Source: Escherichia coli
Lineage (GTDB): Bacteria > Pseudomonadota > Gammaproteobacteria > Enterobacterales > Enterobacteriaceae
DNA length: 64,000 nucleotides
Direction: 5' to 3' (one strand)
Assembly: GCF_003334315.1 (NCBI RefSeq)
Contig: NZ_QOWR01000020.1
Part shown: positions 3,369-55,980 of the stretch, piece by piece
Position numbering within the stretch: position 1 is the first letter of the stretch
Layout of the letters: each line of letters opens with the position of its first letter
Position numbers and translations under genes: made by a program
The notes under the pieces: generated by a model
The model's input: only the letters and a program-made list of their open reading frames with translations
What the model was told of the DNA's origin: nothing
The model's database searches: none

Positions 3369-3869
3369 ATGCGCATAGTTACCGCTGCCGTCATGGCCTC
3401 AACGCTGGCAGTCAGTTCATTAAGCCACGCTGCTGAAGTCGGTTCAGGCGATAACTGGCATCCGGGTGAAGAACTTACGCAGCGCAGTACGCAGAGCCAT
3501 ATGTTCGACGGCATAAGTTTAACCGAACATCAGCGTCAGCAGATGCGAGATCTTATGCAACAGGCCCGGCACGAACAGCCTCCTGTTAATGTTAGCGAAC
3601 TGGAGACAATGCATCGCCTTGTCACCGCAGAAAATTTTGATGAAAACGCTGTGCGCGCACAGGCAGAAAAAATGGCGAATGAGCAAATTGCTCGTCAGGT
3701 TGAGATGGCAAAAGTCCGCAACCAAATGTATCGCCTGTTAACGCCGGAGCAGCAAGCGGTTTTAAACGAGAAACATCAACAACGAATGGAGCAGTTGCGC
3801 GACGTGACGCAATGGCAAAAAAGTTCATCGTTGAAGCTATTGAGTAGTAGCAACTCACGTTCCCAGTAG
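3369..3869 (+). CDS. cpxP: Periplasmic Cpx pathway inhibitor/adaptor CpxP (166 aa)
   Basis: ORF-track 3366..3869 has tandem ATGs; second ATG gives [21 protein letters not shown] signal peptide; [12 protein letters not shown] helical motifs. Confidence 0.95.
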
Positions 3870-3877
3870 TAAACCCT

Positions 3878-3936
3878 GTTTTCCTTGCCATAGACACCAT
3901 CCCTGTCTTCCCCCACATGATGTGGGGGTTTTTTTT
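3878..3936 (+). ncRNA. cpxQ: CpxQ-like 3'-UTR-derived sRNA including the cpxP intrinsic terminator
   Basis: About 60 nt after the cpxP stop ending in hairpin CCCCCACAT/GATGTGGGGG (3910-3928) plus T8; the processed cpxP 3' end is the described CpxQ sRNA. Exact 5' end is not determinable from sequence. Confidence 0.5.
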
Positions 3937-4017
3937 ATCCTCAATTTGCCTGCTGCTTAATGCATTGCAGATGATTTGCTTCCGTTATACTAGCGTCAGT
4001 TGATAGCGGGAGTATTT

Positions 4018-4920
4018 ATGAATCAATCTTATGGACGGCTGGTCAGTCGGGCGGCGATTGCTGCGACGGCGATGGCTTCGCTGCTATTGCTGATTAAAAT
4101 TTTTGCATGGTGGTATACCGGGTCGGTGAGTATTCTCGCCGCGCTGGTGGATTCGCTGGTGGATATCGGCGCGTCGTTGACGAATTTATTGGTGGTGCGA
4201 TATTCCCTGCAACCTGCCGACGATAATCACTCGTTTGGTCACGGTAAAGCTGAGTCCCTCGCGGCGCTGGCGCAAAGTATGTTTATCTCCGGTTCGGCAC
4301 TATTCCTGTTTTTGACGGGTATTCAACATCTGATATCTCCAACACCGATGACAGATCCAGGCGTCGGGGTTATCGTGACAATTGTGGCGCTAATTTGTAC
4401 GATTATCCTTGTCTCGTTTCAGCGTTGGGTGGTGCGCCGGACGCAAAGCCAGGCGGTGCGGGCTGATATGCTACATTACCAGTCTGATGTTATGATGAAC
4501 GGCGCAATTCTGCTGGCGCTGGGGTTGTCCTGGTACGGCTGGCATCGCGCCGATGCTCTGTTTGCATTGGGAATCGGCATCTATATTTTATATAGCGCGT
4601 TACGCATGGGATATGAGGCGGTACAGTCATTACTGGATCGCGCATTACCTGATGAGGAACGGCAAGAAATTATTGATATCGTGACTTCCTGGCCGGGTGT
4701 TAGCGGCGCTCACGATCTTCGCACGCGGCAGTCAGGGCCGACCCGCTTTATTCAGATTCATTTGGAAATGGAAGACTCTCTGCCTTTGGTTCAGGCACAT
4801 ATGGTGGCGGATCAGGTAGAGCAGGCTATTTTACGGCGTTTTCCGGGATCGGATGTGATTATCCATCAGGACCCCTGTTCCGTCGTACCCAGGGAGGGTA
4901 AACGGTCTATGCTTTCATAA
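4018..4920 (+). CDS. fieF: Cation diffusion facilitator (Fe/Zn efflux) FieF/YiiP (300 aa)
   Basis: Start trimmed to ATG giving [15 protein letters not shown]; six TM segments then cytoplasmic domain. Confidence 0.95.
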
Positions 4921-51281: not shown

Positions 51282-52433
51282 TTAATGCCAGCAAAAATGG
51301 TGAATTACCTGGGTTATCAGTTCGCGGGTGGGCTTGATAAACCGTGTTTCCAGATATTCATCAGGTTGATGAGCCTGATTAATTGAGCCAGGCCCCAACA
51401 CCAGCGTCGGGCATAACGTTTGAATAAACGGCGCTTCGGTACAGTAGTTCACCACTTCGGTTTTTGCTCCGAGCAATTTCTCAACCACTTCAACCAGTTG
51501 ATGATTCGGTGGGCATTCATAGCCAGGGATCGGCGGATGCAGCTCGTCGACCGTCAGACGACCCGGCCAGCGTTCGCTCACCGGAGCCAATGCATCGTTG
51601 AGCAAACCATTAAGTTCATTGAGTGTCATGCCAGGCAGCGGACGAATATCCATATGCAACTCACAGCAAGCGCAAATACGGTTAGAAGCGTCGCCACCGT
51701 GAATATGCCCGAGGTTGAGCGTAGGGTATGGCACGGTAAACGCTTCGTAGTGATAACGTTCTTTCAGGTTATCGCGCAATTGCAAAATATGCCCGATGGC
51801 GTCGTGCATTAGTTCGATAGCGTTAACTCCGCGTGCTGGATCGCTGGAGTGCCCCGACTGGCCCTGAATACGGATGGCGTTAGAGATATGACCTTTATGT
51901 GCGCGTACCGGTTGTAGTGACGTCGGTTCGCCAATGATGGCGCAATCCGGGCGCAGGGCGGTAGTTTCGGCAAAATAACGCGCTCCGGCCATACTGGTTT
52001 CTTCATCAGCAGTCGCCAGAATGTAGAGCGGTTTTTTCAGTTTCGTGACGTCGACATCGCGTAGCGCATCAAGGATAAACGCAAAAAAGCCTTTCATGTC
52101 GGCGGTGCCTAAGCCGTAAAGCTTGCCGTCATGCTCCGTCAGTGTAAACGGATCGCGCGTCCAGCGACCGTCATCAAATGGCACCGTATCGGTATGCCCC
52201 GCCAGCAACAAGCCGCCAGCCCCCTGTCCGATACTTGCCAGCATATTGAATTTGTTGCGAGTTCCTGGAACAGGCTGCACTTCCACATTGAAGCCCAAAT
52301 CTTTAAACCAGTCCGCCAGCAGAGTGATTAAATCTGCATTGCTTTGATCGAGTGCCTCTTCCGTGGCGCTTATTGAAGGTGTGGCAATCAGAGCGCGGTA
52401 AATCTCGATAAATGGCGGTAATTTGTTTTTCAT
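51282..52433 (-). CDS. argE: Acetylornithine deacetylase (383 aa)
   Basis: Start trimmed to [26 protein letters not shown]; M20 metallopeptidase fold. Confidence 0.95.
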
Positions 52434-52463
52434 TGTTGACACACCTCTGGTCATGATAGTATC

Positions 52464-52498
52464 AATATTCATGCAGTATTTATGAATAAAAATACACT
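52464..52498. promoter_or_regulatory. ARG boxes (ArgR operator) in the divergent argE/argCBH control region
   Basis: AATATTCATGCAGTATTTATGAATAAAAATACACT contains two adjacent TGAAT-N-ATTCA-like palindromes. Confidence 0.55.
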
Positions 52499-52586
52499 AA
52501 CGTTGAGCGTAATAAAACCCACCAGCCGTAAGGTGAATGTTTTACGTTTAACCTGGCAACCAGACATAAGAAGGTGAATAGCCCCG

Positions 52587-53591
52587 ATGTTGAATACGCT
52601 GATTGTGGGTGCCAGCGGCTACGCTGGCGCAGAGCTAGTGACCTATGTAAATCGCCATCCGCATATGAACATAACCGCTTTGACTGTTTCAGCGCAAAGC
52701 AATGATGCGGGAAAGTTAATCTCCGATTTGCATCCGCAGCTAAAAGGCATCGTTGATCTGCCGTTGCAGCCGATGTCGGATATCAGCGAGTTTAGCCCAG
52801 GGGTGGACGTAGTGTTTCTCGCCACCGCCCATGAAGTTAGCCACGATTTAGCGCCGCAGTTTCTTGAAGCGGGCTGCGTGGTGTTCGACCTTTCCGGCGC
52901 GTTTCGTGTTAACGACGCCACCTTCTATGAAAAATATTACGGCTTTACCCATCAATACCCGGAACTGTTGGAACAGGCAGCCTACGGTCTGGCGGAGTGG
53001 TGCGGTAATAAATTAAAAGAAGCGAATTTGATTGCGGTGCCGGGCTGTTATCCGACGGCGGCACAGCTGGCGCTGAAACCGTTGATTGATGCCGATCTTC
53101 TTGACCTCAATCAGTGGCCGGTGATCAACGCCACCAGCGGCGTGAGCGGTGCAGGGCGTAAAGCGGCCATTTCAAACAGCTTTTGTGAAGTTAGCCTGCA
53201 ACCGTATGGCGTCTTTACTCATCGCCATCAACCAGAGATCGCCACACACCTCGGTGCTGACGTTATCTTCACCCCACATCTGGGCAATTTCCCGCGCGGC
53301 ATTCTCGAAACCATTACCTGCCGCCTGAAATCGGGTGTGACCCAGGCGCAAGTCGCGCAAGTGTTACAGCAGGCGTATGCCCATAAACCGCTGGTGCGGC
53401 TGTATGACAAAGGCGTTCCGGCGCTGAAAAATGTCGTTGGGCTGCCATTTTGCGATATCGGGTTTGCCGTTCAGGGCGAGCATCTGATTATTGTGGCGAC
53501 CGAAGACAACTTACTGAAAGGCGCGGCGGCACAAGCGGTACAGTGCGCCAATATTCGTTTCGGCTATGCGGAAACGCAGTCTCTTATTTAA
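52587..53591 (+). CDS. argC: N-acetyl-gamma-glutamyl-phosphate reductase (334 aa)
   Basis: [18 protein letters not shown] Rossmann N-terminus; active-site Cys in VPGCYPT. Confidence 0.96.
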
Positions 53592-53598
53592 GGGTGCA

Positions 53599-54375
53599 AT
53601 GATGAATCCATTAATTATCAAACTGGGCGGCGTACTGCTGGATAGTGAAGAGGCGCTGGAACGTCTGTTTAGCGCACTGGTGAATTATCGTGAGTCACAT
53701 CAGCGTCCGCTGGTGATTGTGCACGGCGGCGGTTGCGTGGTGGATGAGCTGATGAAAGGGCTGAATCTGCCGGTGAAAAAGAAAAACGGCCTGCGGGTGA
53801 CGCCTGCTGATCAGATAGACATTATCACCGGAGCACTGGCGGGAACGGCAAATAAAACCCTGTTGGCATGGGCGAAGAAACATCAGATTGCGGCCGTAGG
53901 TTTGTTTCTCGGTGACGGCGACAGCGTCAAAGTGACCCAGCTTGATGAAGAGTTAGGTCATGTTGGACTGGCGCAGCCAGGTTCGCCTAAGCTTATCAAC
54001 TCCTTGCTGGAGAACGGTTATCTGCCGGTGGTCAGCTCCATTGGCGTAACAGACGAAGGGCAACTGATGAACGTCAATGCCGACCAGGCGGCAACGGCGC
54101 TGGCGGCAACGCTGGGCGCGGATCTGATTTTGCTCTCCGACGTCAGCGGCATTCTCGACGGCAAAGGGCAACGCATTGCCGAAATGACCGCCGCGAAAGC
54201 AGAACAACTGATTGAGCAGGGCATTATTACTGACGGCATGATAGTGAAAGTGAACGCGGCGCTGGATGCGGCCCGCACGCTGGGCCGTCCGGTAGATATC
54301 GCCTCCTGGCGTCATGCGGAGCAGCTTCCGGCACTGTTTAACGGTATGCCGATGGGTACGCGGATTTTAGCTTAA
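53599..54375 (+). CDS. argB: Acetylglutamate kinase (258 aa)
   Basis: Start trimmed to [23 protein letters not shown]; amino-acid kinase fold. Confidence 0.95.
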
Positions 54376-54435
54376 GTTTTGTTGGCCGGAGGCGCAGCTT
54401 TCCGGCATTGAATTTCAAAATAAGGAAACAGAGTT

Positions 54436-55809
54436 ATGGCACTTTGGGGCGGGCGTTTTACCCAGGCAGCAGATCAACGGTTCAAACAATTCAACGACTC
54501 ACTGCGCTTTGATTACCGTCTGGCGGAGCAGGATATTGTTGGCTCTGTGGCCTGGTCCAAAGCCCTGGTCACGGTAGGCGTGTTAACCGCAGAAGAGCAG
54601 GCGCAACTGGAAGAGGCGCTGAACGTGTTGCTGGAAGATGTTCGCGCCAGGCCACAACAAATCCTTGAAAGCGACGCCGAAGATATCCATAGCTGGGTGG
54701 AAGGCAAACTGATCGACAAAGTGGGCCAGTTAGGCAAAAAGCTGCATACCGGGCGTAGCCGTAATGATCAGGTAGCGACTGACCTGAAACTGTGGTGCAA
54801 AGATACCGTTAGCGAGTTACTGACGGCTAACCGGCAGCTGCAATCGGCGCTGGTGGAAACCGCACAAAACAATCAGGACGCGGTAATGCCAGGTTACACT
54901 CACCTGCAACGCGCCCAGCCGGTGACGTTCGCGCACTGGTGCCTGGCCTATGTTGAGATGCTGGCGCGTGATGAAAGCCGTTTGCAGGATGCGCTTAAGC
55001 GTCTGGATGTCAGCCCGCTAGGCTGTGGCGCGCTGGCGGGAACGGCCTATGAAATCGACCGTGAACAGTTAGCAGGCTGGCTGGGCTTTGCTTCGGCGAC
55101 CCGTAACAGTCTCGACAGCGTTTCTGACCGTGACCATGTGTTGGAACTGCTTTCTGCTGCCGCTATCGGCATGGTGCATCTGTCGCGTTTTGCTGAAGAT
55201 CTGATTTTCTTTAACACCGGCGAAGCGGGGTTTGTGGAGCTTTCTGACCGCGTGACTTCCGGTTCATCATTAATGCCGCAGAAGAAAAACCCGGATGCGC
55301 TGGAGCTGATTCGCGGTAAATGCGGCCGGGTGCAGGGGGCGTTAACCGGCATGATGATGACGCTGAAAGGTTTGCCGCTGGCTTACAACAAAGATATGCA
55401 GGAAGACAAAGAAGGTCTGTTCGACGCGCTCGATACCTGGCTGGACTGCCTGCATATGGCGGCGCTGGTGCTGGACGGCATTCAGGTGAAACGTCCACGT
55501 TGCCAGGAAGCGGCTCAGCAGGGTTACGCCAACGCCACCGAACTGGCGGATTATCTGGTGGCGAAAGGCGTACCGTTCCGCGAGGCGCACCATATTGTTG
55601 GTGAAGCGGTGGTGGAAGCCATTCGTCAGGGCAAACCGCTGGAAGATCTGCCGCTCAGTGAGTTGCAGAAATTCAGTCAGGTGATTGACGAAGATGTCTA
55701 TCCGATTCTGTCGCTGCAATCGTGCCTCGACAAGCGTGCGGCAAAAGGCGGCGTCTCACCGCAGCAGGTGGCGCAGGCGATTGCTTTTGCGCAGGCTCGG
55801 TTAGGGTAA
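54436..55809 (+). CDS. argH: Argininosuccinate lyase (457 aa)
   Basis: [23 protein letters not shown]; fumarase/aspartase signature [12 protein letters not shown]. Confidence 0.97.
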
Positions 55810-55863: not shown

Positions 55864-55980
55864 AAAAAAAAGCGGATCCTGGAGATCCGCAAAAGTTCAC
55901 GTTGGCTTTAGTTATTCGAGTTGAGAAACTCTCGAAACGGGCAGTGACTTCAAGGGTTAAAAGAGGTGCCGCTCCGTTTC
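55864..55980 (-). ncRNA. oxyS: Oxidative-stress small RNA OxyS (~109 nt)
   Basis: Minus strand reads GAAACGGAGCGGCACCTCTTTTAACCCTTGAAGTCACTGCCCGTTTCGAGAGTTTCTCAACTCGAATAACTAAAGCCAACGTGAACTTTTGCGGATCTCCAGGATCCGCTTTTTTTT, matching OxyS as I recall it, including its terminator hairpin; divergent from oxyR. Confidence 0.88.

Follow-up and report, generated by a model that had tools for sequence, protein, structure and literature searches.

An ArgR operator shared by argE and argCBH in Escherichia coli: sequence, significance, and conservation of the known argECBH operator

In the 64,000-nucleotide stretch of Escherichia coli chromosomal DNA analyzed here (the window), the 39 bp at positions 52460-52498 are almost certainly the one ArgR operator that serves the bipolar argE/argCBH cluster, that is, the known E. 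coli argECBH operator. The identification draws on the sequence itself, its significance against an independently built weight matrix, its canonical geometry, its overlap with published promoter hexamers, and a conservation that follows the degeneracy pattern of the ARG-box consensus. The argECBH operator is already known and well characterized, and our analysis leaves the current picture unchanged; binding and repression at argECBH were reportedly established by Piette in 1982 and by Charlier and Tian in 1992.

Genes flanking the operator

The operator lies between arginine biosynthesis genes, argE to its left and argCBH to its right:

51282-52433, minus strand: argE, acetylornithine deacetylase, 383 aa (NCBIfam equivalog NF003474, 711 bits; RefSeq)
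52587-55809, plus strand: argCBH, the rightward wing of the cluster (NCBIfam equivalogs; RefSeq)
52587-53591, plus strand: argC, N-acetyl-gamma-glutamyl-phosphate reductase (NCBIfam equivalog TIGR01850, 416 bits; RefSeq)
53599-54375, plus strand: argB, acetylglutamate kinase (NCBIfam equivalog TIGR00761, 262 bits; RefSeq)
54436-55809, plus strand: argH, argininosuccinate lyase (NCBIfam equivalog NF008964, 864 bits; RefSeq)

An earlier note on this DNA had described argE and argC as a divergent pair separated by 153 bp, and the NCBIfam equivalogs and the RefSeq annotation agree with it, the spacer being 52434-52586. By annotation the ATG start codon of argE is at 52433-52431 on the minus strand; the mechanical list of open reading frames extends this frame to 52472. 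A divergent argE-argC pair has been described as characteristic of enteric and vibrio-like bacteria (PMC1382215). The repressor gene argR is annotated at K-12 coordinates 3384703-3385173, outside the 64-kb window.

The same note had proposed a comparison with the characterized argECBH operator. The spacer is base-for-base MG1655 4154848-4155000 (near argE-argC, the K-12 coordinate is the window coordinate plus 4,102,414), and the operator corresponds to 4154874-4154912 in K-12. Locus, genes, and orientation are the same as in K-12, and the control region shows no difference at all; over 4 kb, the window does not copy MG1655 letter for letter and so probably derives from a different strain. A 501-bp query spanning the spacer found a match in all 5,426 complete E. 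coli genomes; identity was 99% or more in 4,794, and the RefSeq annotation was always argE / argC.

Three observations concern the surroundings of the locus. No contiguous match across the spacer was obtained in 59 of the 5,426 E. coli genomes. In E. coli E302 (NZ_AP022362.1, locus bp 3771-4600), an IS26 transposase gene lies just to the right of ARG box 2, at about window position 52519/52520, and comes between argCBH and the segment with argE and the operator; the genes that follow are unrelated and encode an NqrC-like protein and an FTR1 permease. The OxyS small RNA (Rfam RF00035, 139.5 bits; annotated as b4458 in K-12) is found at 55871-55980 on the minus strand, between argH and oxyR and divergent from oxyR.

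Operator architecture and weight-matrix analysis

The operator reads TATCAATATTCATGCAGT att TATGAATAAAAATACACT, an 18 + 3 + 18 layout with the following parts:

52460-52477, no strand assigned: ARG box 1, TATCAATATTCATGCAGT, the weaker box; 11.4 bits; exactly 3 bp from box 2; 17/18 positions invariant
52478-52480, no strand assigned: inter-box spacer att, 3 bp; constant in length and free in sequence, with 0/3 positions invariant across 8 species
52481-52498, no strand assigned: ARG box 2, TATGAATAAAAATACACT, the stronger of the two; 19.1 bits, higher than any other single box in 64 kb; 16/18 positions invariant

The IUPAC consensus of the ARG box is WNTGAATWWWWATTCANW, from which box 1 departs at three positions and box 2 at one. 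This consensus agrees with the conserved ARG-box positions G4, A6, T7, A12, and T13 named in PMC6640053. Both boxes are only weak palindromes, and an inverted-repeat finder pairs 52459-52472 with 52482-52495, which are near-identical 14-mers (ATGAATAnnnATAC) on opposite strands. The canonical ArgR site consists of two 18-bp boxes and a 3-bp spacer, 39 bp in all, and in arginine biosynthetic operons it overlaps the -10 and/or the -35 element (PMC6640053; PMC4381063; PMC6245113); the spacing is 3 bp and rarely 2 bp (PMC6640053; PMC4381063). The earlier note had reported two adjacent ARG-box-like palindromes at 52464-52498. Both are present, each weakly palindromic, and box 2 is complete in that interval, but its left end clips 4 bp off box 1, so that the operator has to be redrawn as 52460-52498.

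An ARG-box weight-matrix scan, likewise proposed in that note, was carried out with a matrix built from nine upstream regions of K-12 MG1655 (carA, argF, argA, argG, argR, argD, argI, artJ, and artP), from which argECBH was left out. The best tandem site was taken from each training region, and the matrix was symmetrized (13.8 bits). Eight of the nine training sites were convincing, with scores of 27.6-40.9 bits at 10-69 bp before the ATG, and all eight had the 3-bp spacing. The argR training site was poor (12.2 bits at 3-bp spacing, noise only), probably because the argR operator has a 2-bp spacer. With this matrix, the tandem at 52460-52498 was by far the best pair in the 64 kb: with its 3-bp spacer it scored 30.5 bits and ranked 1 of 63,962, the next independent site reaching 12.3 bits, and its score falls within the range of the eight well-placed training operators. 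When the argR training site was removed from the matrix, the tandem scored 32.0 bits and box 1 12.3 bits. The scan detected no second tandem site in the argE-argC spacer.

Exact score distributions gave the tandem a per-position p of 5e-11 under the window composition, or 3e-6 sites expected per 64 kb; with a background of 65% A+T, 0.0025 tandem sites of such a score are expected per 64 kb. In 300 first-order Markov windows, no site reached 30.5 bits, the largest score being 24.6. Taken singly, box 2 ranked first in the window, and box 1 ranked sixth, with about 2.5 such boxes expected by chance, so that by itself it is no better than chance. The significance of the site is due to the matrix score of box 2 together with the tandem arrangement with the 3-bp spacer. 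A plain IUPAC consensus search of the 64 kb allowing up to 3 mismatches returned 6 matches against 5.9 expected and is uninformative alone. The second-best single box of the window, ATTGATTATAAAAACATA at 62641-62658 (14.4 bits), has no partner box at 2-4 bp spacing and is therefore probably a chance occurrence.

The low score and rank of box 1, with its chance expectation of about 2.5 equal or better boxes, would also suit a site in which ArgR truly contacts box 2 alone, box 1 being a chance neighbor or standing for a box in another register (52456-52473, 7 bp from box 2). That overlapping register scores 9.1-9.7 bits, and the pairing made by the inverted-repeat finder points in the same direction. 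We nevertheless regard such an arrangement as very improbable. The 3-bp spacing is the rule in E. coli and holds in every one of the eight well-placed training operators, a partner box of low score is nothing unusual (8.8 bits in artJ, 9.9 in artP, and 11.3 in argD), the 3-bp register outscores the alternative one, and the sole variable base of box 1 in the 3-bp register falls on an N position of the consensus.

Conservation in enteric bacteria and vibrios

Genome contigs were scanned with a degenerate pattern for the argC coding sequence, not for the operator. This permissive scan collected 120 loci, mostly from other phyla, and 14 of them contained an adjacent divergent argE-argC pair. The same matrix found tandem boxes with a 3-bp spacer and scores of 30.4-36.1 bits in 11 of these 14 other species: E. 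albertii, Citrobacter werkmanii, two Enterobacter, Superficieibacter, two Photorhabdus, and four Vibrio. In these 11 species the tandem usually scored far above everything else in the same locus. One gammaproteobacterial MAG gave an intermediate tandem score (23.2 bits), and two Colwellia spacers contained no convincing tandem site by the E. coli matrix. In two of the loci, those of Vibrio bivalvicida and Vibrio gelatinilyticus, one more tandem ARG-box site with a high score (30.2 and 23.8 bits) was seen outside the argE-argC spacer; its sequence suggests another ArgR operator within or beside the longer arg cluster of Vibrio.

Among the enterics, the operator keeps a fixed spacing of 25-26 bp to the argE start, and the argC leader varies widely in length, with 23 to 110 bp between box 2 and the argC ATG. 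We aligned the eight enteric spacers, from E. coli to Photorhabdus, and found the boxes invariant at 33 of 36 positions; the variable columns are consensus position 17 in box 1 and positions 2 and 17 in box 2, all of them N. The boxes are far more conserved than the other spacer columns (33/36 versus 28/117 invariant; Fisher p = 2e-13). Compared with the adjacent non-coding promoter DNA on the left, the difference in conservation has a p of only 0.08, and therefore promoter constraint contributes to the conservation, as would be expected of an operator that coincides with two promoters. Part of the invariance of the block may be due to constraint on the promoters rather than on the operator.

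Overlap with two promoters

In genomic SELEX, the RNA polymerase holoenzyme bound the argE-argC spacer, and hexamers were assigned, partly in silico, as TTGACA-18-TATCAA for argCBH and TTCATA-17-GATACT for argE (PMC3946193). Each published pair occurs exactly once in the window, at 52436-52465 on the plus strand for argCBH and at 52486-52458 on the minus strand for argE:

52436-52441, plus strand: argCBH -35, TTGACA (PMC3946193); 3 bp from the argE start codon; invariant in 8/8 enteric species
52458-52463, minus strand: argE -10, GATACT (PMC3946193); unique match; invariant; shares 4 bp with the argCBH -10 and 4 bp with box 1
52460-52465, plus strand: argCBH -10, TATCAA (PMC3946193); the first 6 bp of ARG box 1; invariant across species
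52486-52481, minus strand: argE -35, TTCATA (PMC3946193); its complement is the first 6 bp of ARG box 2

As far as these partly in silico assignments hold, the two sigma-70 promoters, of argCBH and argE, are oriented toward each other with overlapping -10 hexamers (52460-65 and 52463-58), and hexamers of both promoters overlap 52460-52498. A generic sigma-70 scan of 52300-52700 under strict rules (a 16-18 bp spacer and a T at position 6 of the -10) returned 0 sites, and the placement of the promoters was therefore taken from PMC3946193. An RNA polymerase at either promoter, with a footprint of about -55 to +20, would lie over most of the operator or all of it. The segment TGATAGTAT at 52454-52462 is invariant in all 8 enteric species and reads as an extended -10 (TGnTAGTAT) 15 bp after TTGACA. 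Judged by its letters, TGaTAGTAT may be an alternative extended -10 for argCBH to the published TATCAA with its 18-bp spacing.

The idea that the conserved A+T-rich block consists only of overlapping promoters (-10, -35, and UP-like elements), with an incidental ARG-box likeness and no repressor, is barely credible: the invariant block (52454-52499) does coincide with both -10 hexamers and the argE -35, and the boxes are not significantly more conserved than the promoter DNA to their left (p = 0.08), but a matrix from nine unrelated operators gives the site 30.5 bits where 3e-6 such sites are expected per 64 kb, the invariance of box 2 spans 14 consecutive bases (52483-52496) and goes beyond a 6-bp -35 hexamer, the variable columns coincide exactly with the inter-box spacer and the N positions of the consensus, and both promoters are repressed by ArgR in reporter measurements (PMC3658269).

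Model of repression at the shared operator

The sequence-level features that define an E. coli ArgR operator are all present at 52460-52498 and, subject to the hexamer assignment, so is the promoter overlap; with the same proviso, the locus would qualify as a bipolar operon with one shared operator. One ArgR operator for both directions is what the earlier note had proposed, and the canonical 18 + 3 + 18 layout, the hexamers of both promoters that overlap it, and its conservation in Enterobacterales and Vibrio support the proposal. One operator can serve both promoters because the published hexamers of both directions overlap the boxes. For ArgR binding, its dependence on arginine, the steric exclusion of RNA polymerase, and the exact transcription starts, we rely on the literature and on what the layout would imply.

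In the mechanism proposed, an ArgR hexamer loaded with l-arginine would occupy both boxes from one face of the helix and bend the DNA; ArgR bends DNA by 70-90 degrees (PMC4381063). The bound repressor would cover the argCBH -10 and start region as well as the argE region from -35 to -10. Because the argCBH -10 lies in box 1 and the argE -35 in box 2, it would shut RNA polymerase out of both promoters at once. When arginine is scarce, ArgR would leave and both wings would be derepressed together. Mutually exclusive binding of ArgR and RNA polymerase at an overlapping promoter is known from carP2 (PMC6245113). The fitted dissociation constants of ArgR are near equal for argCBH (1.52) and argE (1.75), both relative to argA (PMC3658269), as would be anticipated if the two promoters share an operator. 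In rich defined medium, protein occupies argE/argC in vivo, and this occupancy has been attributed to an ArgR-like motif (PMC12776088).

An ARG-like box within argE and the argC leader

An isolated ARG-like box, AGTGATTAAATCTGCATT, lies inside argE at 52323-52340, at codons of about 32-37. It scores 13.3-14.0 bits depending on matrix and strand, and is the third-best single box in the 64-kb window; its center and the center of box 1 are 137 bp apart, or about 13 helical turns. With about 3 boxes like it per 64 kb, there is a chance of about 1% of finding one within 140 bp. The box scores 11.9-14.2 bits in five other Enterobacteriaceae and 2.6-3.5 bits in Photorhabdus, a pattern confounded by coding constraint. 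The main operator leaves two ArgR subunits free, for which the box might offer an additional contact and so tune argE repression, for example through wrapping or looping, but we consider this role unlikely; coding constraint (peptide NADLITL) and chance explain the box about equally well.

The rest of the spacer makes up the leader of argC:

52499-52586, plus strand: argCBH 5' leader; poorly conserved and variable in length, with 9/88 positions invariant

The ribosome-binding site of argC, AAGGTGA, is at 52571-52577. A small hairpin in the leader, CCCACC-agccgtaa-GGTGaat at 52517-52538, was scored by the scan as terminator-like on the minus strand; its stem is kept and its loop varies in Citrobacter and Superficieibacter, and Enterobacter cloacae and Photorhabdus lack the whole segment. 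An exact 9-bp direct repeat, AAGGTGAAT, occurs at 52530-52538 and 52571-52579, 41 bp apart, the first copy in the hairpin region and the second at the argC ribosome-binding site. Two candidates in this leader were rejected. An attenuator or riboswitch was dismissed on account of the poor conservation of the leader and of an Rfam search that returned no match at the gathering threshold; attenuation is not used in the arginine genes of E. coli (PMC6245113). A 4-codon mini-ORF after the first copy of AAGGTGAAT was discarded as well, its Shine-Dalgarno-like sequence abutting the ATG and the frame not being conserved in Citrobacter.

Comparison with other operators and implications

Like the argF, argI, carAB P2, argA, argD, argG, artJ, and artP operators, the argECBH operator consists of two 18-bp imperfect palindromes that match wnTGAATwwwwATTCAnw and are separated by 3 bp. 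It shares with the other E. coli ArgR operators the combination of one strong and one weaker box, a tandem score in the range of 27.6-40.9 bits, and, as far as the hexamers are rightly assigned, the overlap with the core promoter. Unlike them, it serves two face-to-face promoters, whereas the others serve one. The bioA/bioBFCD locus resembles argECBH in that divergent biosynthetic genes have partly overlapping face-to-face promoters and one operator of about 40 bp represses both directions; it differs in its repressor, BirA with biotinyl-5'-AMP, which belongs to another family and uses another corepressor, and the operator sequences are unrelated. The carAB operator serves one of two tandem promoters (PMC6245113).

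The value of the present case is only that of a positive control, in which an operator recognized from raw sequence was recovered by an independent matrix and by its cross-species footprint. A plain consensus search would not mark the site as significant; the signal is carried by the tandem spacing and the weight matrix. The locus itself is the textbook case in which two face-to-face promoters answer to one repressor site, and it coordinates steps 2, 3, 5, and 8 of arginine biosynthesis.
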